A DNA stretch of 24,558 bases from UHGV virus genome UHGV-0105381; one strand, given 5' to 3'. Numbering within the stretch: the first letter of the stretch is position 1; every line of letters begins with the position of its first letter. This stretch comes from a virus. The notes beneath the pieces are model-generated. The model saw only the letters and a list, made by a program, of their open reading frames with translations, was not told the origin of the DNA and did no database searches. Positions 7,469 through 24,520 of this stretch are shown piece after piece. The position numbers and the translations under genes are program-made.

Positions 7469-9667
7469 ATGGCAGAAAAAAAGATGACTGACTGGCATCG
7501 CAAGGTGCTGTGCAACTTTGATAATGCCTGGTCAGCAACGCAGGATATGCGTGAGCAGATTATTGAGGCTCAACGTTTCGTCCGGGTGTCCGGCGCACAG
7601 TGGGAAGGCAGCACAAACGCTGGTTACTCATTTGATGAAGGCAGGTTTGAGCATTACCCGCGCTTTGAACTGAATAAGATTGCCCGTGAATGTGATCGCA
7701 TCATTGGCGAGTATCGACAGAATCGCATCAGCGTTAAATTCAGGCCGAAGGACGATAAGGCATCGGAAGCGTTGGCCGAAAAGATGAACGGCAAATTCCG
7801 CGCTGACTATCAGGAAACATCCGGTGGCGAAGCGTGTGATAACGCATTTGATGATGCTGTAACGGGTGGATTCGGTTGTTTCCGCATGTGTGCCGATTAC
7901 GAAGATGAAATGGATCCGAGTAACGAGCAACGCCGTATAAGCCTTCTTCCTGTTTACGACCCAGCGACATGCGTCTTCTTTGATCAGGACAGCAAGCAAT
8001 ATGACCGCTCTGATGCTATGTGGGCTATGGAAATGTTCTCCATGACGCCCAAAGCGTTCGAGGCTGAATACCCTGATTCCATCGCGGCAAGCCTTTCTCG
8101 TGATGACACTGGCACTCAATATGACTGGTCAACGCCCGATGCCATCTATGTTGGACGCTACTACGAAGTTCGCATAGAGAAGGTGAAGCTCACGGCGTGG
8201 CGCAACCCTGTTAGCGGAGAAACGGCAATCTATGATGAAGAGCAAATCAAAGATGTTGTCGACGAGCTAACCGATGGCGCATTCGAACTGATTGGTGAGC
8301 GAACGGTGAAGAAACGCCGCGTTTATTGCGGCCTTCTGTCTGGCGCTGAATGGCTGGAAGAACCGAAGCGTATTCCGGGCGAACATATTCCTCTCATCCC
8401 GGTATATGGGCGTCGCTCATTTGTTGATAATCAGGAGCGAATCGAAGGCCACGCAGCAAAAGCGATGGATGCACAGCGTCTTGAGAACCTGATGGTTTCC
8501 ATGATTGCAGATAACGCTACTCAGGCTGGCGGTGATGGCATTCCTGTAGTTGATGTTGACATGATTCCTGGTCCTCTCGCCAATCATTGGGCGGAGCGCA
8601 ACAAAAAGCGCCCGGCGTTCCTGCCGATGGTAAGTCTGAAAAACAAAAACGGAGATATTACTGCGCAGGCTCAGGTCAGCAGTTATACACCTCCAACACA
8701 AATGCCTCCTGCTCTTGCCGGGCTATTACAGTACACCGGAACGGCTATTCAGCAAATTACAGGTGCGTCGCAGCTTGAGAACATGCCGAGCAACGTCGCT
8801 ACCGATACCGTTGATAGCATCTTTAACAGGATGGACACGCAGTCATATATCTACATGGACAACATGGCTAAATCCATGCGTCGCGCTGGCGTTGTGTGGC
8901 TTTCTATGGCGCGTGAGGTCTATGGCAGCGATACGCCAATGCGCATCGTTAATGAGGACGGCAGCGATGACGTGGCGCTGATGACTGGTGAAGTGGTTGA
9001 CCGTCAGACAGGGCAGGTTATCGCGCTTAACGACCTTTCGCAGGGTAACTATGAAGTGACTGTCGATGTCGGTCAGTCGTTCGCTACTCGCCGTGATGCA
9101 ACGGTTAAGTCGTTACTTTCCATGCTGGCACTTATCCCACCAGGAACGCCGAAGCACGACCTTGTATCGTCGATGATTCTCGACAATATGGACGGCGAAG
9201 GGATGGACGATCTTAAAGAATACAACCGCAATCAGTTGCTTCTGTCTGGAGTTATCAAGCCGAGAACACCAGAAGAACAGCAGATGGTTGAGCAGGCGAA
9301 ACAACAACAGGCCAGTCAGCCGGATCCGGCTATGGTTGCAGCGCAAGGTCAGCTTCTTGCTGGTCAGGCTGAATTGCAGAAAGCGCAGAACGAACAGGCA
9401 GCCATTCAGGTTAAAGCATTCCAGGCACAGACTGATGCTCAGGTTGCTGCGGCAAACGTTGTGAAAATCCTCGCATCTGCCGATAGCCAGCAGAAATCTG
9501 ATATCCGCGAGGCTCTGAAACTGCTCGGACAGTTCCAGCAACAGCAAGGAGACAATGCCCGTGCTGATGCAGAGCTTGTCCTGAAAAGTCAGGCGCAGGG
9601 ACATGCACAACGCATGGACATCAGCAGCATCCTGCAAAAATCAACTCAGCAACAACCACAGCAATAA
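7469..9667 (+). CDS. Portal protein (P22 gp1-like)
   Basis: 732-aa ORF; segments (KRRRVY, GEHIPLIPVYG, PEEQQ...QPDPAMVAAQGQLLAGQAELQKAQNEQ, ARADAELVLK...HAQRMDISSILQ) match recalled P22 portal including the C-terminal barrel region. Confidence 0.95.
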   Translation: MAEKKMTDWHRKVLCNFDNAWSATQDMREQIIEAQRFVRVSGAQWEGSTNAGYSFDEGRFEHYPRFELNKIARECDRIIGEYRQNRISVKFRPKDDKASEALAEKMNGKFRADYQETSGGEACDNAFDDAVTGGFGCFRMCADYEDEMDPSNEQRRISLLPVYDPATCVFFDQDSKQYDRSDAMWAMEMFSMTPKAFEAEYPDSIAASLSRDDTGTQYDWSTPDAIYVGRYYEVRIEKVKLTAWRNPVSGETAIYDEEQIKDVVDELTDGAFELIGERTVKKRRVYCGLLSGAEWLEEPKRIPGEHIPLIPVYGRRSFVDNQERIEGHAAKAMDAQRLENLMVSMIADNATQAGGDGIPVVDVDMIPGPLANHWAERNKKRPAFLPMVSLKNKNGDITAQAQVSSYTPPTQMPPALAGLLQYTGTAIQQITGASQLENMPSNVATDTVDSIFNRMDTQSYIYMDNMAKSMRRAGVVWLSMAREVYGSDTPMRIVNEDGSDDVALMTGEVVDRQTGQVIALNDLSQGNYEVTVDVGQSFATRRDATVKSLLSMLALIPPGTPKHDLVSSMILDNMDGEGMDDLKEYNRNQLLLSGVIKPRTPEEQQMVEQAKQQQASQPDPAMVAAQGQLLAGQAELQKAQNEQAAIQVKAFQAQTDAQVAAANVVKILASADSQQKSDIREALKLLGQFQQQQGDNARADAELVLKSQAQGHAQRMDISSILQKSTQQQPQQ

Positions 9668-15883: not shown

Positions 15884-17179
15884 ATGGCTACTTGGCAAGG
15901 ATCAAATGGCGGATTGTTGGCTGGTATCGGCGGCGTCAACTCAAACGCTCCGAGCGTAAATGACATCGGCAATACGCTTCAGCTTATCAGGCAGAACAAT
16001 GATATTGAGCGTTCAGGCGCTAACAATGTTGGGCTGACTGCTTTGCAAGGCCTTTCAGGTATTGCAGGAGTGTTTCAGCAGGAAAAGCAGGCTCAGCGGC
16101 AGAAAGAATTTCAGCAGGCGTACGCTAATGCTTATACGTCTGGTGATCGCGGTGCTTTGCGTCAGTTGGCTACTCAATATCCAGACCAGATTGAATCCGT
16201 TCGTAAAGGCATGGGATTCATTGATGAAGACCAGCGCAATTCCATCGGTACCTTAGCGGCTGGCGCACGCCTTGCGTCATCGTCTCCAGAAGCAATGCAA
16301 TCATGGCTGCAAAACAACGCCAAGGAACTGACTCGCGTCGGTGTTGACCCTAATAACGTTGCTCAGATGTATCAGCAGAATCCTTCAGGATTTGGTGAGT
16401 TTGTTGATCACCTTGGAATGGCTGCTCTTGGTCCGATTGATTACTTCAATGTTCAGGACAAGATGGCTGGTCGTGAGATTGACCGAGGCAGGCTGGCAGA
16501 GACAATCCGCAGCAATCAGGCAGGAGAAGCACTAACAGCTCGAGGTCAGGACATCCAGATACGTGGACAGAACATCAGCGCACAGAATGCTGCTCTTTCC
16601 CGAGAAATACAAAGAGCAGAATTACAAGAAAAGGCTCTGGACAGACAGATAGCCAGAGAAAGCAATCAGTTAAAGCTTGAAGAGCTAAAACAGAAACAGG
16701 CAGATGTTCGGCAAAAGGCTGACATAGCCCGCGCTGACAGGCAGGCCGCCGCTCAGGGTGCAGTTGATACGTTCAGCACCGCGCTTGATTCTCTCAACGA
16801 GATAGAGCAAAGCCCCGGCCTTTCAAAAGCAGTAGGAATTCGCTCAGCGTTTCCGACAGTTCCTGGCTCTGATGCGGCTAACTTTGAAGCAAGGCTCGAC
16901 ACCTTTAAAGCTCAAACATTCCTTCCTATGGTGCAGTCCCTGAAGGGTATGGGCGCTCTTTCAGATGCAGAGGGTAAAAAATTATCCGATGCGGTTGGTG
17001 CCCTAAGCCCCAAAATGAGTGAAAAGGCTTTTCGTGACTCTATCGGAAAGATTAGAAATCAGCTTGAAAGCAAGTTGAGCACTGTTAAAAAACAGTTTGA
17101 TTATCAGGAGCCGGTGCAGAATATGCCAGGGCAACAATCTACTACTGGCAGTAACTTTTCTTCGCTATGGGGTGATTAA
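15884..17179 (+). CDS. Ejection (DNA-transfer) protein, P22 gp20-like
   Basis: 431-aa ORF, syntenic; coiled-coil-rich central region. Confidence 0.7.
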   Translation: MATWQGSNGGLLAGIGGVNSNAPSVNDIGNTLQLIRQNNDIERSGANNVGLTALQGLSGIAGVFQQEKQAQRQKEFQQAYANAYTSGDRGALRQLATQYPDQIESVRKGMGFIDEDQRNSIGTLAAGARLASSSPEAMQSWLQNNAKELTRVGVDPNNVAQMYQQNPSGFGEFVDHLGMAALGPIDYFNVQDKMAGREIDRGRLAETIRSNQAGEALTARGQDIQIRGQNISAQNAALSREIQRAELQEKALDRQIARESNQLKLEELKQKQADVRQKADIARADRQAAAQGAVDTFSTALDSLNEIEQSPGLSKAVGIRSAFPTVPGSDAANFEARLDTFKAQTFLPMVQSLKGMGALSDAEGKKLSDAVGALSPKMSEKAFRDSIGKIRNQLESKLSTVKKQFDYQEPVQNMPGQQSTTGSNFSSLWGD

Positions 17180-19176
17180 TGGCTAAAGCATGGAAAGATG
17201 TTATCGCCTCTCCACAGTATCAGGCGTTAGCACCAGAACAAAAAGCGCAGGCTCAGGAGCAATACTTCAATGAAGTCGTTGCCCCGCAAGCCGGAGAAAA
17301 TGCAGAGCAGGCTAAGCAAGCTTTCTATGCTGCCTATCCATTGCCATCTGTGCAGCCAGTGGAGACACAACAACCAGTATCACAGCAACAACCACAGCAA
17401 AGTGGATTTATGTCGGATCTTGGTGAAGCCGTGAAAGAAACTGGTCGCGGACTGGTGCAGGCTGGCGTGAACGTGGCAAACATACCTGCATCAGTTGCCG
17501 ATGCTGTAACAAGCGCGGCGGCTTGGGCTGGCGGTAAACTCGGAATTGGCGATGGGACATATCACCCAGCGCCACGAGTAACAACGCAGGGATTAGAGCA
17601 GGACTTTGGCCTTCAGCAAGGCGCGCTGACTCCACAAACTACAGAGGGCAGGGTATTTGCTGAGGCATTGCCTTACCTCACTCCTGCTGGCATTGAGAGA
17701 GCGGCAACACAGGCACCAACACTCGCTGGTAGAATCGCTCAGGGTGCAACTCGCCTTCTCGCTGAAAACGCAGTCGGGTCACTTGCTGCAAATAGTGCGA
17801 AAGATGATGCGGAAGCACTCGCTACCGATTTAGGCATTGGCGTTCTGGCTGGCGGCGCTATTAACGCTGCCGGACGTGGATTAGGCGCTGCTTATCGTGG
17901 CGTTCGTGGTGCTATTGCACCAGAAGCGCAGCAAGCTATCAGATTTGCAGAGCGTGAAGGAGTGCCTCTGCACACCACAGACCTGTTACAGCCTAGTTCC
18001 CGCGTCGGAAAAATGGCGCAAACGACAGCAGAAAATATCCCCCTGGCTGGCACAAGCGGAATGAGAGCAACGCAACAGGAAGCGAGAAGCCAGTTGGTTC
18101 AGAGATTTGCTGATAAATTCGGTGAGTATGATCCAGCGGTTGTTATTGACAGCCTTAAAGCGAAAACATCAGGAATTCGTCGCGCTGCAGGAAATCGACT
18201 GGAGCAGGTTCAGAATGCTATGGCGGGAATAAACATTCAGCCTGCAAGAGCAATTCAGCAGATTGATACAGAAATATCTAACCTGCAGAAGCTTGGTAAG
18301 GTTGCTGATAACGAGACTATTTCAAAACTTCAGTCCTATCGTGATGAGCTTGTTCGCAATGCTGGTCCTGATGGTCCGGTAAATCTGGATTTGAAGCAAT
18401 TAAGCGATCTGCGCAGCCAGTTCAGAATGGACGTGAAGGGTGAGCGACCAGTGTTACCAAACCGTTCCGATGCTGCCATTCAGCGCGTTTACAAGGCAAT
18501 GACCGACGATATCAATGGTGCCATTGGTCAGAATCTTGGCAACGATACTCTCCGTAAATATCAGCAGGCCAATGCCGTCTACGCTGACGAAGCCGCGAAA
18601 CTAAAGAATACCAGGCTGAAGAATGTTCTCATGAAAGGCGATCTGACGCCGGAAGTTGTCAACAACATGCTATTCAGCAAGAACAAATCGGAAATTAAGA
18701 CGCTGTATAACTCAGTTGGTCGTGTTGGCAGGGCGCAAATGCGCAATGGCATCATTGGAAAGGCGATGGAGAAATCTGGCGGATCCCCTGACCAGTTCCT
18801 TCGGCAGCTTAACATCCTGCAAAACCAGACTGGCATCACATTTAAGGGGCAGGACGCTGCTTATCTGAAAGGATTAAAAAACTACCTGCAATCTACGCAG
18901 CAGGCTGCAAAAGCGGCAGTAACAACACCCACAGGGCAGCAAACTATCCCGTTCATTATTGGGTATGGGACGGCAATGAACCCTGCGACAACTGGCGCAG
19001 CAGTAAGCTACGGACTTCTTACTCGCGCCTATGAGAGCGAGCCATTCAGAAATGCAATGCTCAGAATGGCAAACACCCCACGCGGATCAACAGCGTTTGA
19101 GAAAGCCATGCAGCAGGCACAAAAGGCAATTAACGCTATGACGCAGGGGGCTAAGTCTGATGCGTTGTCAGAATAG
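17179..19176 (+). CDS. Ejection (DNA-transfer) protein, P22 gp16-like
   Basis: 665-aa ORF, syntenic, Ala/Gly-rich; last gene of the contiguous rightward structural operon. Confidence 0.7.
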   Translation: MAKAWKDVIASPQYQALAPEQKAQAQEQYFNEVVAPQAGENAEQAKQAFYAAYPLPSVQPVETQQPVSQQQPQQSGFMSDLGEAVKETGRGLVQAGVNVANIPASVADAVTSAAAWAGGKLGIGDGTYHPAPRVTTQGLEQDFGLQQGALTPQTTEGRVFAEALPYLTPAGIERAATQAPTLAGRIAQGATRLLAENAVGSLAANSAKDDAEALATDLGIGVLAGGAINAAGRGLGAAYRGVRGAIAPEAQQAIRFAEREGVPLHTTDLLQPSSRVGKMAQTTAENIPLAGTSGMRATQQEARSQLVQRFADKFGEYDPAVVIDSLKAKTSGIRRAAGNRLEQVQNAMAGINIQPARAIQQIDTEISNLQKLGKVADNETISKLQSYRDELVRNAGPDGPVNLDLKQLSDLRSQFRMDVKGERPVLPNRSDAAIQRVYKAMTDDINGAIGQNLGNDTLRKYQQANAVYADEAAKLKNTRLKNVLMKGDLTPEVVNNMLFSKNKSEIKTLYNSVGRVGRAQMRNGIIGKAMEKSGGSPDQFLRQLNILQNQTGITFKGQDAAYLKGLKNYLQSTQQAAKAAVTTPTGQQTIPFIIGYGTAMNPATTGAAVSYGLLTRAYESEPFRNAMLRMANTPRGSTAFEKAMQQAQKAINAMTQGAKSDALSE

Positions 19177-19269
19177 CTTTTCAAACACCAGGAACGTGCA
19201 AAAACCAAATATGTAGAACGCGAGGTTTATCGTATCCCTCTGCATAGGCGATGATACATTTGCTGATTG

Positions 19270-19755
19270 TTATCTGATGTTACTGCTACTGTTGCATGTG
19301 ACTGTATTTCCAAACCCTGAATTGCAGTTTGTGTAAGTTTCAACTCGTGTTGGATAGGGTTGAGTTATAACAGGCTGTCTCGCTTTTTGCTCGATCGCTT
19401 GCATTGTGTTTACAGCCTGATAATTCAATAAAGCCTGCTGGAATGCTTGGCTTTGCGCTATTTGTTGGGCTTGTTCTTGGCTTTGTAGTTGAACATAAAG
19501 ATTCTGAAGCTCAAGTCTTGCCTGCGCGTCACTTATCTTGCCATCATCGACACCTTGCCCGAGCATCTTCGCAGCAAGGACATATAACTTAGGTGTTGGT
19601 GCTGATGCCATGCGTGAGTCGTTCTTCACGCTAGCATCAAGGCAATTAGCCATATCGCTAAGCTTTGGATAGCGTTGTTCGCAATTTGCCTGATAGTCGC
19701 TAACCTTTGCGCACCCTGCCAGCAGAAGCGGGATAATTAACAGTGATTTTTTCAT
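19270..19755 (-). CDS. Lipoprotein of unknown function (moron in the sieA position)
   Basis: Start at MKKSLLIIPLLLAGC with lipobox LAGC; AAGGAGAG RBS upstream; the ORF-track N-terminal extension is probably not used. The +2 residue is Ala, which by the +2 rule predicts outer-membrane sorting. Confidence 0.7.
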   Translation of the reverse strand: MKKSLLIIPLLLAGCAKVSDYQANCEQRYPKLSDMANCLDASVKNDSRMASAPTPKLYVLAAKMLGQGVDDGKISDAQARLELQNLYVQLQSQEQAQQIAQSQAFQQALLNYQAVNTMQAIEQKARQPVITQPYPTRVETYTNCNSGFGNTVTCNSSSNIR

Positions 19756-19889
19756 ATGATTAACTCTCCTTATCTTTGCCATCATGGCACTGTTGGGTGT
19801 AAATGAGTTATTAACTCAATCGACAATATCTTCACGAAAATACTTTTTATTATTAAGATCTTTCTGATTCTAACAAAACGGAAAGTAAT

Positions 19890-20309
19890 ATGAAGAGGAT
19901 TATCGGCGTCGTTGCTGGCGCTATATTGTTATCTGGGTGCGCAACTATTGTTGGTGATGAAACGCAGCTTGTGCAAGTGAACAGCAATCCTTCTGGCGCG
20001 AGCTTTAAGGTAAAAGATGAATCTGGTGTGATTGTTGCGCAAGGTAAGACTCCACAAGGTGTAACACTCGCCAAGTCAGATGGTAGCTATTTTGGCAAAA
20101 AGAGCTACCAGATCACTATGGAGAAGGATGGGTACGAACCAGTTACCCTGCCAATCAAAGCCAATGCTAATGGTTGGTATATTGGTGGGAACCTTGTGTT
20201 TGGTGGGTTAATTGGTTGGCTTGCTGTAGATCCATTTAATGGTGGGATGTATACCTTGAAGCCTAAAGAGGCAAATGCATCCCTTATACCGTCCACAAAG
20301 CAAGACTAA
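19890..20309 (+). CDS. Lipoprotein with PEGA-like domain (moron in the sieA position)
   Basis: 139-aa ORF; signal peptide with lipobox LSGC; SNPSGASFKV...GKTPQGVTL...YQITMEKDGYEP resembles the PEGA domain pattern; Gly-rich hydrophobic C-terminal segment. Confidence 0.7.
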   Translation: MKRIIGVVAGAILLSGCATIVGDETQLVQVNSNPSGASFKVKDESGVIVAQGKTPQGVTLAKSDGSYFGKKSYQITMEKDGYEPVTLPIKANANGWYIGGNLVFGGLIGWLAVDPFNGGMYTLKPKEANASLIPSTKQD

Positions 20310-20316
20310 TAAATGG

Positions 20317-20340
20317 AACCCACCATCAGGTGGGTTTTTT
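20317..20340 (+). terminator. Rho-independent terminator (AACCCACC-atca-GGTGGGTT + TTTT) between the convergent lipoprotein and mnt genes
   Basis: Perfect 8-bp stem followed by a T run, read from sequence; overlaps the 3' end of mnt on the other strand. Confidence 0.8.
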
Positions 20341-20577
20341 GTACAAATCCTTCAGCGTATCAAACACCATCTTCTTAACAAGTTCAGACTGCTCATCAGC
20401 GATGCGTTCCGCATCGTCTCGATAGCCTGAAATTTTGGATGGCCTTGATACAGCATCAGTCACTATCTGAACTAATTCTGAATTAAGAGAGCGGCCATTG
20501 GATTTGGCTCGCTGTTTTAGTTTTTCCTTTAATTCGTAAGGTAGCCGCAGATTAAATTGCGGGTCATCTCTTCCCAT
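20326..20577 (-). CDS. mnt: Mnt repressor (ribbon-helix-helix, P22 immI-type)
   Basis: 83-aa ORF; DDP.FN.R.P.E..EKLK.RA..NGRS.NSEL.QIV.DA.S.PS...GYR.DAER.ADEQSELVKKMVFDTLKDLYKK matches recalled P22 Mnt almost throughout. Confidence 0.9.
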   Translation of the reverse strand: MGRDDPQFNLRLPYELKEKLKQRAKSNGRSLNSELVQIVTDAVSRPSKISGYRDDAERIADEQSELVKKMVFDTLKDLYKKPT

Positions 20578-20641
20578 TCTTGATGCCTCGCTCTTGTGAG
20601 TGGATCGGCATCTTATTATCTGCTGGTTGCATCCTCAATAA

Positions 20642-20654
20642 GACCACGGTGGTC
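20642..20654. promoter_or_regulatory. Candidate Mnt operator: perfect 13-bp palindrome GACCACGGTGGTC
   Basis: Palindrome read from sequence in the mnt/tailspike divergent intergenic region; the core CCACGGTGG resembles the recalled P22 mnt operator (GTCCACGGTGGAC-like). Confidence 0.55.
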
Positions 20655-20712
20655 GTATTTTTTGATTAATAATGAATCACTGCGGCCATTCCTTGTATCT
20701 GGAGCAAATTAA

Positions 20713-23358
20713 ATGACAGACATTACAGCCAATGTTGTAGTGAGTATGCCTTCGCAACTCTTCACTATGGCTCGTTCTTTTAAAGCCGTAGCCAATGGCA
20801 AAATTTATATCGGTAAAATTGACACTGACCCGGTAAATCCTGAAAACCAGATTCAGGTCTATGTTGAGAACGAAGATGGTTCTCACGTTCCTGTTGCACA
20901 GCCAATCGTCATCAATGCCGCAGGGTATCCAGTATATAACGGACAGATTGCCAAATTCGTTACCGTGCAAGGCCATTCTATGGCTGTTTATGATGCGTAT
21001 GGTGCACAGCAGTTCTATTTTCCTAATGTGCTGAAGTATGACCCGGATCAGTTTAAACAAAAAGTATTATCAAATGATATGCTAAATATGTCTCCTCTTT
21101 ATTTTGGAGCTAAGGGGGATGGGATTAGCGATGATACTGAAGCATTTGTCGCGTTGGAAATGGATATAAAAAATAGGGTTATTGATTTAAGTGGAAGAGC
21201 ATTTTTTGTTACTAAAAGTTTTATTGGAAATAGCTATATAAATGGTTCTTTTATTCGTGATGGCAGTAAACGAATTGCGATTGGTGATCTTAAATTAAGA
21301 GATAAAAGAGAGCCATTGATATTTTCCGGAATGCCAAAAGTATATAACACCAGACACACGTTGCGCAGAACTGAAGGTGCGGGTGGTTTATATGCGGTCA
21401 TTCAGGGGTGTTGTTATGATGAAATTAACGACAAGATTTTTACTTTATCATCTACCACAGCATACGGTTATTGCATTAATGCCTTTGACGTGACGAATTC
21501 TGGTGAACTAGGAAGATACGACAGAACCCGTTCTACTGAACTTGGGCATCAGGGGCTTGGATTGCATCATAATCCTGATGGTACTGTCGTGCTGTGGACA
21601 TCGAAGCCTTATGGAACCGATGCCGCCAATCAATGTATTTCGATGGAAAATATATTGAGTTACACAGGGACAACCAACGGAGTATCTGAAGGTTTTATCA
21701 CCTGGAAGTTGTTCCCCTATGATGGAATGAGCGCAAGCTCTACTCCAACTGTATCAAGTTGTGAAAACTATCTACTTGCCAAGAAAATTTCATCGGATGG
21801 AATTACCTGCACGGTTCGTGTTTTCGACATAGTCAGCATGTGGAATAACAGAGCTCATAAAACTGATTATAGTGATGATTATTTAGTTGAGTTTAGCTAT
21901 CAAAAACCATCACAAGAAGCATTTACCCAATCAATTGCTTGCGATGGGGCATACATTTACATACTTGAGTCACATACGTATGTTGGCATGACTAATTATA
22001 TTTACGTATTTGACTTAACAGGCAGGTTTATTGAGCGAGTAGATATTTCAACTGTTGGTGATGATGAAGCAAAATCTGACAGTACAGGAACTCCTGTTTA
22101 TAAAGAGCCTGAGTCCCTAACAGTAATTAGAACGGAGAGTGGGTATGTTTTAACGCTGGGGATATGCACATATAAAGGAGTTGCTGAGAACGGGAAAAAT
22201 GTATATCTGTTTGATATAGGCAGGTCTGGTTCGGTAGTGCAAAGCAAAGCAAGCCGTTCTGTATCCAGTAATACTGGTCTTCATAGTTCTGGCTCCCCGG
22301 AGTTCAAATATGGAGTAAGGGAGTACAATGATACTTTTCACTGGATAGTTTGGCCAACAAGAAAGGGTATTCAAACTAACCGGGATAACCCTATATTGTT
22401 TCTTGATGGCGGAATTACTGGTGGAATGCAGTTAGCTTCAAACGGCACGGAAGGGATGAGCAACTCATGGGTTTCCCGGCATCAGTCAGACACCGCAGAA
22501 GGACCAAGAGCAATAATGTATAAGTCTCGCTCTGGTGTTGTATCAACTGATAATTTTGGAGCTCTGCAGACAGGGGATGTATTGGGTACTCATGTATGGG
22601 CCGGTGATACAGGTAGTAAGGCTGTGCAATGCGCACACATTAAATGCGTCACAAGAGGTAATCCTTCCGGAGACAATATCCCGGTTGCTTTCTACTTTGG
22701 AACCATGGGAGAGAGTGACGGCTTGCGTGACAGATGGGTATTAACAGAATTAGGTCATTTTCGACCATCAGGTTCAAATCTTTATGATATTGGTACACAG
22801 TCGAATACTGTCAGAAACCTGTATATAAATAATAGCCCCATTGTAACCAGCGACAGAAATTATAAGCAGGATGAAGCTTCATTATCTGATGCAGAACTAC
22901 GGGTTGGAATGGCTATTTACCCGCTGATAAAAAAATTCAGAATGAAGGATGCTGTAAAAGAAAAAGGCTTGTCAGCGCGTGAGCATATCGGTGTAATTGC
23001 GCAAGATATACAATCCATCTTTGAATCTGAGGGGCTTGATGCATTTTCTTATGGGGTTCTTTGCTATGAAGAGTGGGATGATGAGTATGAGAAAGTCTAT
23101 GCAACAAGAAATGTGACCAGAAAAATTTTAATTGATGAAGAGTCTGGTCAGTATGATGAAATCACAGAGGAAGAAGAGTATGAAACTGGTGAAGTAAGGT
23201 TAATTATGGAATCAGGAAGAAAATTATCAGTGCGCTATGACGAGTTAATGTTTCTGGCAATGAGCGCACTATATCATCACCATGAGCAGGATATTGCCAA
23301 TATCACATCAAAGATTAATAATCTGGAAAAATTATTAAAGTTAACACTAAATGGTTGA
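20713..23358 (+). CDS. Mosaic tailspike: P22-type N-terminal head-binding domain, pectate-lyase-like beta-helix receptor-binding domain, C-terminal intramolecular chaperone (peptidase S74-like) domain
   Basis: 881-aa ORF; aa 1-114 ([11 protein letters not shown]...[33 protein letters not shown]...[12 protein letters not shown]...NVLKYDPDQ) match recalled P22 gp9; [14 protein letters not shown] follows; C-terminus has an SDAELR...GVIAQDIQ autoproteolytic chaperone-like region. Nucleotide composition turns AT-rich after about nt 21050. Confidence 0.9.
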
Positions 23359-23379: not shown

Positions 23380-23406
23380 GCCCAGCTACATGCTGGGCAA
23401 TGTTTT
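23380..23406. terminator. Hairpin GCCCAGC-tacat-GCTGGGC followed by AATGTTTT, between the convergent tailspike and glycosyltransferase genes
   Basis: 7-bp perfect stem read from sequence, 22 nt after the tailspike stop; T-rich downstream on the plus strand. Confidence 0.7.
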
Positions 23407-24520
23407 AAATTTCAGCTATAAAACCTTCATAATTATTTTGTAAAAAAGGTTTGATGAACTTACGCTGAGGGGTATAAATCATATCCTGATTTACTAAATC
23501 TGAGCGGATATTGAAAGTGGTTGAGAGCATGTTAAAGAACATCCTTTTCTTTTGCTCGTTGCCACCTGCTTTACCACATACCTTTTCCATCATTTCAAGG
23601 CATATCACCAGCCACGCATTGTAAAGCTTGGCCTTTTCTTCGTTAGTTTTTCCGCAAAAGTAAATCGTGTTAATAACCGAGTTAAGAATGAAGTGTCTAT
23701 CTTCAAGAGGAAATTTTTGCCTTGATAAATGACCATTACCATGGAATGTTAAATGATAATAATCTTTGTCAGCAAGAATAGATATATTGTTTGCTACAGA
23801 TAGAGATTGAACCATAAATATTTTATCTTCAGCTACGGTGATAGCTGGGTTGAAGAGAATGTTATGCTCTTTAAGCATATTTCTTCGGAAGAATTTGAAA
23901 ATAGTTAACGACCGCAAGAGGTGATGCTTGGTTATATCTGCCTTATCTACAATTTTCACCTTGTATGGACGGATAGGCACCTCGCGATTACCATCTGATG
24001 CAATTTTGAAGTAAACAATATCACTATTATTTTTATCAGCAATATGAACCCCTCTCTCAAGAAGAGTTTCGTCAATATAGTCATCGGAATCCATGAAGAA
24101 AATATAACGCCCTTTTGCTGCTTTTATCCCCTCATTTCGCGGGGTTGAAGCGTTACCTGAACCAATTTCTCGGCGAATAATTCTGTAGTTAATATCCGGT
24201 GCTATATTATATTCTATAGCAGCAATGCTTTTGTCACTTGAACAATCATCGACAAAAATAACCTCAAAGCGATCCTTATTAATTGTTTGGTTATTAAGTG
24301 AGTTAATGCATTTAAGAATAAGTTTTTCACGATTATGAACAGGGATAACAACTGACACATCTAATGGGCAAAAATGGTTAATCTCATTAACTACAGTCGT
24401 TATTTTAGTAAAAGCCGCCAACAAAGCTGTTGTTAAATCAGTAGAAGATAAAAGGCTTTCTTTTTTAGTATTAGCTTTTATGTTAAAATAGAACCAATTA
24501 TTACGAGGTACAAAATCCAC
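23405..24520 (-). CDS. Family-2 glycosyltransferase (GT-A fold); 5' end unresolved, reading frame stays open upstream to the window edge
   Basis: VSVVIPVHNREK nucleotide-sugar binding motif and FFMDSDDYID (DxD) motif; AT-rich; minimal ORF starts at GTG 24520 without an RBS, and the frame continues through the tetranucleotide tract with no stop. Confidence 0.85.
   Translation of the reverse strand: MDFVPRNNWFYFNIKANTKKESLLSSTDLTTALLAAFTKITTVVNEINHFCPLDVSVVIPVHNREKLILKCINSLNNQTINKDRFEVIFVDDCSSDKSIAAIEYNIAPDINYRIIRREIGSGNASTPRNEGIKAAKGRYIFFMDSDDYIDETLLERGVHIADKNNSDIVYFKIASDGNREVPIRPYKVKIVDKADITKHHLLRSLTIFKFFRRNMLKEHNILFNPAITVAEDKIFMVQSLSVANNISILADKDYYHLTFHGNGHLSRQKFPLEDRHFILNSVINTIYFCGKTNEEKAKLYNAWLVICLEMMEKVCGKAGGNEQKKRMFFNMLSTTFNIRSDLVNQDMIYTPQRKFIKPFLQNNYEGFIAEI

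Follow-up and report, generated by a model that had tools for sequence, protein, structure and literature searches.

Several P22-like phages carry a shortened form of the immI region of phage P22, an "ant moron" reduced to mnt. Phages ST64T, ST104, and Para1 were described as carrying only mnt and one unknown gene (Villafane 2008, PMC2629481); the same study considered whether Mnt and Arc might take part in late read-through to the tailspike and mentioned a link between Pant transcripts and gene 9. The layout was described, and the question of a new function or a remnant raised, by Villafane 2008 and Zaworski 2020, and both alternatives were put forward earlier for phages L, ST64T, and ST104 (PMC8022706, PMC2629481). 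In the mnt-only phages ST64T, ST104, L, SE1, ST160, Gally, and vB_EcoP-720R6 (720R6), mnt is divergent from the tailspike gene and adjoins it across a homologous gap of 135 to 146 bp. These phages share one operator class and one mnt promoter (Pmnt) and lack arc, ant, and sieA; in Sf101, likewise mnt-only, the operator is of a third class. The complete P22 immI region has, in addition to mnt, the genes arc and ant, the sar RNA, the promoter Pant, the Arc operator Oarc, and an ant terminator.

The window, i.e., the whole 24,558-nucleotide stretch of DNA analyzed here, represents the half of a P22-like (Lederbergvirus) Escherichia coli prophage that carries the late genes, with virion genes ~95 to 96% identical to those of phages 720R6, CUS-3, Sf101, and Gally. 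Positions 20300 to 20760 match the E. coli GMF054 chromosome at 100% identity. The region from 20578 to 20712 belongs to the known mnt-only form, with the published layout: it is the exact 135-bp gap between the mnt start codon (20577, minus strand) and the tailspike start codon (20713), it is homologous to the gap of the ST64T, L, ST160, and Gally type, and mnt is divergent from and directly adjoins the tailspike gene. The operator class and Pmnt are also those of this group. Identity to the mnt-only phages is 95 to 96% for Gally and 720R6, 82% for ST160 and SE1, and 75% for L, ST64T, and ST104; the near-identical E. coli versions in Gally and 720R6 are annotated "Mnt repressor." The arrangement of mnt, gap, and tailspike gene recurs in 110 of 5426 complete E. 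coli genomes (~2%). The window differs from the other mnt-only phages in belonging to a sublineage with an 11-bp tailspike-leader deletion and a T-run after the operator, and the receptor-binding part of its tailspike and its neighboring moron genes also differ; in L and ST64T, the C-terminal half of Mnt differs from that of the window.

Upstream of mnt, a gp16-type injection gene (17179 to 19176) is followed by two lipoprotein-like morons, one on the minus strand (19270 to 19785) and one of 139 amino acids on the plus strand (19890 to 20309), at the place where P22 has sieA. Two promoter-like sites for the minus-strand open reading frame (ORF) lie at 19849 to 19894. The 139-aa ORF, which has a weak, sub-threshold PEGA-domain match, is common to epsilon34 (gene 15), Gally, and 720R6. 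Between this ORF and the mnt 3' end lies a strong hairpin terminator (20317 to 20336; -15.0 kcal/mol, z = -3.1) with its T-run on the plus strand, overlapping the last mnt codons. On the other side of the gap, the tailspike gene (20713 to 23358, plus strand) encodes 881 amino acids with a P22-type head-binding domain, a middle part without a Pfam match, and a C-terminal Peptidase_S74 chaperone domain. Directly downstream and convergent is a family-2 glycosyltransferase gene (23405 to 24520), plausibly a serotype-conversion gene.

The initial annotation had described mnt as intact and unaccompanied by arc or ant, and both statements hold. The gene (20326 to 20577, minus strand) is an uninterrupted ORF of 83 codons whose product is 75 to 76% identical to P22 Mnt over its full length. 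Both expected domains score well above their Pfam cut-offs, namely, the N-terminal ribbon-helix-helix domain (Arc, PF03869; 1.1e-21, 76.8 bits versus 20.4) and the C-terminal tetramerization domain (Repressor_Mnt, PF11423; 1.4e-18, 66.7 bits versus 20.9), and the protein matches PDB entries 1mnt (7e-34) and 1qey (3e-12). The exact protein was found on 514 contigs. A tblastn search of the window with P22 Arc matched only mnt itself, through ribbon-helix-helix similarity, and one with P22 Ant gave no match at an E value of ≤1e-3. The sar RNA (Rfam RF00262) gave no match at an E value of ≤1 in positions 19000 to 21200, versus 97.8 bits for the P22 control, and direct reading of 20578 to 20640 revealed no TAGA or TCTA half-site of an Arc operator. 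The window lacks arc, ant, sar, an operator-overlapped Pant, and an Arc operator. Mnt family membership and the positions of Pmnt and of the operator, as well as operator symmetry, are what the window shares with P22 immI.

Within the gap, a perfect palindrome, GACCACGGTGGTC (GACCAC-G-GTGGTC), occupies 20642 to 20654, with 6-nt arms around one center base, and ends 58 nt before the tailspike start codon, at the coordinates and distance given by the initial annotation. Such a palindrome is unremarkable taken alone, because the window contains 17 perfect 6-N-6 palindromes (~6 in shuffled sequences). Its significance comes from its register, its closeness to the promoter, its single occurrence, and the conservation of its arms across diverged lineages while the center varies. 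When the window (CTCAATA followed by AAGACCACGGTGGTCGT, 20640 to 20656) is set against P22 (CTCAATA followed by AGGTCCACGGTGGACCT), 13 of 17 positions are identical to the annotated P22 operator in the same register. The predicted 17-bp site, AAGACCAC-G-GTGGTCGT, lies 1 bp from the -35 hexamer of Pmnt and, relative to the predicted mnt start, spans about -37 to -53 with its center near -45; a two-fold symmetric site of ~17 bp just upstream of the Pmnt -35 is the placement characteristic of the Mnt family. Among 46 distinct haplotypes of the window's mnt type, 39 have perfect arms, and the center base is nearly evenly distributed (G in 14, C in 12, A in 11, and T in 9). A free center base between constant arms is the pattern that would be expected of a site for a dimer-of-dimers protein. 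We are therefore highly confident in predicting, from this register and conservation and from the strand and half-site correspondence described below, that the palindrome is the cognate Mnt operator, so that the earlier assignment of the palindrome to Mnt is very probably correct.

The operator is single copy in the window, as it is in the complete Gally genome, and additional operators as further cis targets were ruled out in both sequences. In one phage-L-type locus (L240, 2400 to 2500), the operator is split by a 38-bp insertion, and AAGACCACCGTG is duplicated, giving a second complete operator further out.

The consensus scan lists the palindrome as terminator-like on the plus strand, and a T-run (GTATTTTTTG) is present, as would suit an RNA hairpin acting mainly as an intrinsic terminator or attenuator before the tailspike. 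We regard this as extremely unlikely. The predicted fold is only -6.3 kcal/mol (z = -0.6), versus -15 kcal/mol for real terminators nearby, and is not a stable hairpin; the T-run is missing in 720R6/Gally, ST160, and L; and the arms fit the family of Mnt operators and no conserved stem context. On folding energy and T-run non-conservation, an intrinsic terminator was rejected.

The claim that the divergent region contains only the palindrome was accurate as to its presence there and incomplete as to the rest, as the gap also contains a good mnt promoter and a tailspike leader. Pmnt (20610 to 20638, minus strand) consists of a -35 hexamer, TTGAGG (20638 to 20633), a 17-nt spacer, and a -10 hexamer, TAAGAT (20615 to 20610). 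The mnt ribosome-binding region, as read from the sequence, is at 20585 to 20591 (minus strand), with GAGG 8 nt before the ATG, and is kept in 10 of 11 mnt-only lineages. The 5' leader of mnt (20585 to 20610, minus strand) also has a short inverted repeat that overlaps the ribosome site with its 3' arm; the arms read CACTT..AAGTG in L and CACC..GGTG in VSe13, L174, and L223, and these lineage-specific arm sequences suggest that the stem is conserved.

On the tailspike side of the operator, positions 20657 to 20712 comprise an AT-rich joint, GTATTTTTTGATTAATAATG, followed by the last ~40 nt of a conserved pre-tailspike segment containing the tailspike Shine-Dalgarno sequence GGAG (20701 to 20704, plus strand). 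Most P22-like tailspike genes have, ~25 to 45 nt upstream, a small RNA hairpin on the plus strand (CCGYAGC-loop-GCUGYGG, including G-U pairs), and P22 has two copies of this segment. Covariation support for the hairpin is weak, with five pairs, two of which show double changes. In the window's sublineage, the 11-bp deletion (at ~20680 to 20692 relative to 720R6; compare L002:3420-3460 and L004:4150-4204), which lies between CTGYGGC direct repeats, removed it. In several relatives (L008, L034, L042, L046, L056 to L060, L065, L069, and L070), a truncated 5' tailspike stub, upstream of mnt in locus coordinates, directly follows the mnt gap, and the real start is ~280 to 800 bp further on; these stubs resemble traces left by tailspike swapping at the conserved leader/head-binding junction.

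The sequence of the operator is accompanied by a corresponding difference in the protein. The recognition segment of the window's Mnt, its β-strand, reads R-D-D-P-Q-F-N-L-R-L ("type Q"), that of P22 Mnt R-D-D-P-H-F-N-F-R-M, so that strand residue 6 is Gln rather than His, and the half-site is AGACCAC rather than GGTCCAC. All 96 collected loci with an Mnt beginning MGRDDPQFNLR (28 distinct mnt sequences, some contigs having been fetched twice) are mnt-only, without arc and ant, and nearly all have AAGACCAC-N-GTGGTC. Where the strand is that of P22 (DDPHFNFRM) and the gap is of the P22 type, all loci carry GGTCCAC-G-GTGGACC, arc, and ant. The exceptions are L075/L079, L076, and L077, which have the DDPHFNFRM strand and a gap without GGTCCAC-G-GTGGACC; they are of the CUS-3 type, with a second mnt-like gene upstream, and the pairing of the window's strand with AGACCAC is independent of them. 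It is thus almost certain from these pairings that the palindrome belongs to a second Mnt specificity class, in which the strand PQFNLR goes with the half-site AGACCAC, as PHFNFR goes with GGTCCAC in P22. Specificity is known to switch when strand residues are exchanged between Arc and Mnt (Knight and Sauer 1989 and Raumann 1995, cited in PMC3413123). The strand PQFNLR of the window's Mnt is identical to residues 8 to 13 of P22 Arc; unlike Arc, the window's protein has the Mnt tetramerization domain, and its operator is a 17-bp Mnt-type site rather than the 21-bp one of arc.

An exact-pattern scan of viral contigs for the operator brought up further loci, among them L090, L116, and L119; 90 of the 120 loci lacked a Mnt, Arc, Ant, or tailspike homologue and are probably chance matches. 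The same scan recovered complete cassettes on IMG/VR contigs (L090/L214, L217 to L221, and L227) with the strand MARDDPQFNLRM, sharing with the window RDDPQFNLR and the operator TCAATAAGACCACGGTGGTCT. Unlike the window, these cassettes have kept a strong Pant (TTGACA-17-CATTAT) and an arc homologue, six of the seven also have an ant homologue (L217 yielded none), and their Mnt C-terminal part and mnt leader are unrelated to those of the window. L116 and L119 are unrelated viral contigs encoding a 146-aa ribbon-helix-helix protein (SREDPQFKLRMP...), with three tandem (A/G)GACCAC-N-GTGGTC sites upstream of its own gene (7680 to 7760 and 8170 to 8250, respectively), and this is, judging from the sequences, an independent use of the window's strand and half-site pair. 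Elsewhere, the strand QFHLRL goes with TACC-N5-GGTA (Sf101, IME10, and VSe13), QFRIRL with GTCACAC-N-GTGTGAC, and PFGLRM or PLGVRI with CTACAT-N-ATGTAG. Such natural pairs of Mnt strand and operator may provide a small data set for DNA recognition by ribbon-helix-helix proteins.

CUS-3, with which the initial annotation had suggested a comparison, shares the virion gene module of the window (95.5% identity in the late genes) and has Mnt-family genes before its tailspike. Unlike the window, it has kept ant and has two tandem mnt-like genes, and its P22-type copy has no adjacent cognate operator. In this locus (L271, 4006 to 4535), the copy with the DDPHFNFRM strand has no P22-type operator nearby, and the gap toward ant contains an unannotated small Arc-like ORF (MKVKTLRMPEKLEK...).

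The initial annotation had also proposed that Mnt directly controls tailspike expression in the lysogen. Direct repression would need a rightward promoter overlapped by the operator. We scored every position and spacer of the gap with a sigma-70 matrix in the window and eight comparison loci and calibrated the scores with the 245,270 combinations of position and spacer on both strands of the window. The matrix uses general consensus frequencies, so that the scores given below rank sites and are no measurement, and weak or factor-dependent rightward promoters could escape this scoring. Leftward, Pmnt of the window (TTGAGG-17-TAAGAT) scored 10.5 bits, at the 99.998th percentile of window positions, with a predicted start near 20603, and is positionally homologous to P22 Pmnt (TTGAGA-17-TATCAT; 13.1 bits). 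Rightward, none of the gap's position-spacer combinations rose above chance: the best (TTGTGA-17-TATCTG), which is not at the Pant position, scored 2.9 bits in ~600 trials, versus 15.5 bits for P22 Pant (TTGACA-17-TATATT) and 11.3 bits for Pant of the complete same-class cassette L090 (TTGACA-17-CATTAT). A separate consensus scan listed no promoter in the window gap and detected both Pmnt and Pant of P22 as well as Pant of L090; the window's Pmnt matches the consensus at 8 of 12 positions and was hence not listed.

The position homologous to P22 Pant (20605 to 20633, plus strand) reads TCGGCA (20605 to 20610) and TGCATC (20628 to 20633) at a spacing of 17, leaving no recognizable promoter. Across mnt-only lineages, the former Pant -10 varies among TGCATC, TGTATC, TATATC, CATATC, TTTATA, TGTAAC, and CAAATC, and the TTG of the Pmnt -35 and the TAnGAT of its -10 are kept in most of 11 such lineages. 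A Pant that survived, with the operator overlapping a tailspike-facing promoter so that Mnt keeps the tailspike silent in the lysogen, would fit several features of the region: in P22 the operator covers the Pant start, the operator is conserved, and the ant terminator is gone, so that any rightward promoter would feed directly into the tailspike gene. Transcripts from P22 Pant reportedly reach gene 9. Against these stand the lost hexamers, the below-chance rightward score next to the strong Pant of P22 and L090, the negative consensus scan with positive controls, and the unconserved -10 position, and we consider a surviving Pant very unlikely. The proposal of direct control is thus unsupported, and on these sequence grounds on/off control of the tailspike by Mnt is improbable. 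We infer from synteny and established P22 biology that the tailspike would be served by read-through from the late operon, as in P22.

The alternative offered by the initial annotation, a deletion remnant, has a correct half, in that Pant, arc, sar, and ant have been lost, but the cassette that remains is conserved. Comparison of the window's mnt with that of ST160, which is likewise mnt-only, gives a dS of 0.475 and a dN of 0.054 (dN/dS = 0.11); against phage L, synonymous sites are saturated, and the DNA-binding half has a dN of 0.10. Despite this saturation, a hand count shows differences from L at only ~17% of positions in the 78-bp stretch that begins at the mnt ATG and ends with the operator, so this stretch is constrained. 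Within the window's mnt type, the promoter hexamers, the spacer, and the operator arms have 0.17 to 0.6 variant alleles per position; third codon positions have 0.8 to 1.1, the DNA immediately beyond the operator has 2.1, and the operator center has 3.0. The gap backbone (GATGCCTCAC..GTGGA..GGCATC..CTACTG..CAAT plus the operator) recurs in phages of E. coli, Salmonella, Shigella, and Proteus and is kept in 11 lineages, one of them a Proteus phage. Of the 46 haplotypes, 38 combine an intact mnt with perfect operator arms; decaying copies are those with a stop codon in mnt (two) or a single arm mutation (six). The mnt cassette is therefore under purifying selection and is not simply decaying.

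These data bear directly on the possibility that mnt and its operator are functionless and persist only through recent deletion or linkage to the tailspike. The decaying copies just mentioned and the high genetic flux in the region would agree with plain decay, as would the genetic work on phage L, which found no functional immI and whose authors list "remnant" as an option. A dN/dS of ~0.1 between mnt-only lineages whose synonymous sites are half to fully saturated does not, nor does the constancy of promoter, ribosome site, and operator arms while the center base, promoter spacer, and downstream DNA vary. The layout is moreover spread over phages of four host genera, and the exact protein recurs on hundreds of contigs. 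We consider a plain decaying remnant quite unlikely.

The gap backbone is also found in the Sf101/VSe13 class, although both the strand and the palindrome differ there. Because both partners differ on a shared backbone, it appears that repressor and site are kept matched in cis, which would be unnecessary if Mnt acted solely in trans; recombination could also produce this pattern.

We judge it reasonably probable that the region is a self-contained mnt cassette and that the tailspike is read from the late operon. The ancestral immI region would have lost Pant, Oarc, arc, sar, ant, and the ant terminator, leaving a minus-strand unit that runs from the operator through Pmnt and mnt to the terminator. 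Antiterminated late-operon polymerases would transcribe the tailspike gene as in other P22-like phages, reading through the terminator at 20317 to 20336, running antisense over mnt, and crossing the operator. In the lysogen, Mnt would be made constitutively from Pmnt and would bind the operator directly upstream of the Pmnt -35. The likeliest cis effect would be modest autoregulation of mnt. In P22, Mnt bound at this position is said to stimulate rather than repress Pmnt, and autorepression is therefore not assured.

A second possible effect of this arrangement is that Mnt hinders tailspike-bound polymerases. As the main role of the cassette, operator-bound Mnt together with polymerase at Pmnt would trim the late-operon output of the tailspike and block leak-through from the upstream morons in the lysogen, an idea already hinted at in the literature. 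By geometry, all rightward transcripts must cross Pmnt, which opposes them, and the operator; this site is conserved in cis despite there being no promoter to repress, and the other strand and palindrome on the same backbone in Sf101/VSe13 argue that cis pairing matters. However, the strong terminator at 20317 to 20336 already handles leak-through, autoregulation explains the cis conservation equally well, and antiterminated late polymerases usually displace bound repressors. We therefore regard interference with tailspike-bound transcription as an unlikely main role and return to the self-contained cassette with late-operon transcription of the tailspike.

Such a cassette may also act in trans. 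Mnt could silence Pant of incoming antirepressor phages of the same operator class and thereby protect the prophage from induction. The complete same-class cassettes would be the targets, and the two whose neighboring DNA was compared (L218 and L227) adjoin Yersinia-like or Enterobacter-like phage DNA, unlike the P22-like E. coli setting of the window. A blastn search of complete E. coli genomes with the cassette L219 returned only P22-type cassettes, at ~70% identity. With the two compared cassettes beside Yersinia- or Enterobacter-like DNA and no same-class cassette at detectable similarity in the complete E. coli genomes, a trans target in E. coli is hypothetical. The best phage match, Erwinia phage Midgardsormr38, was rejected as a same-class complete cassette, as its Mnt is of a different class.

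The layout itself adds nothing new, being a common and annotated variant of P22 immI. What is added here is purifying selection on the cassette, a second operator class shared with complete antirepressor cassettes, and the lack of a recognizable tailspike-facing promoter, and these leave autoregulation, hindrance of tailspike-bound polymerases, and immunity in trans as the candidate roles of the lone Mnt. We tentatively suggest, as a possibility and no firmer than that, that selection has kept the lone mnt cassette as an autonomous module and that it is not debris. The matching of repressor and operator in cis, with two specificity classes on one gap backbone and no promoter to repress, would then imply an undescribed cis role, such as gating or insulating tailspike-bound transcription; a standing defense against antirepressor phages of the same class would be an alternative or additional role. 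The question raised by these phages is thereby sharpened to why a repressor without its known target persists in so many P22-like prophages.
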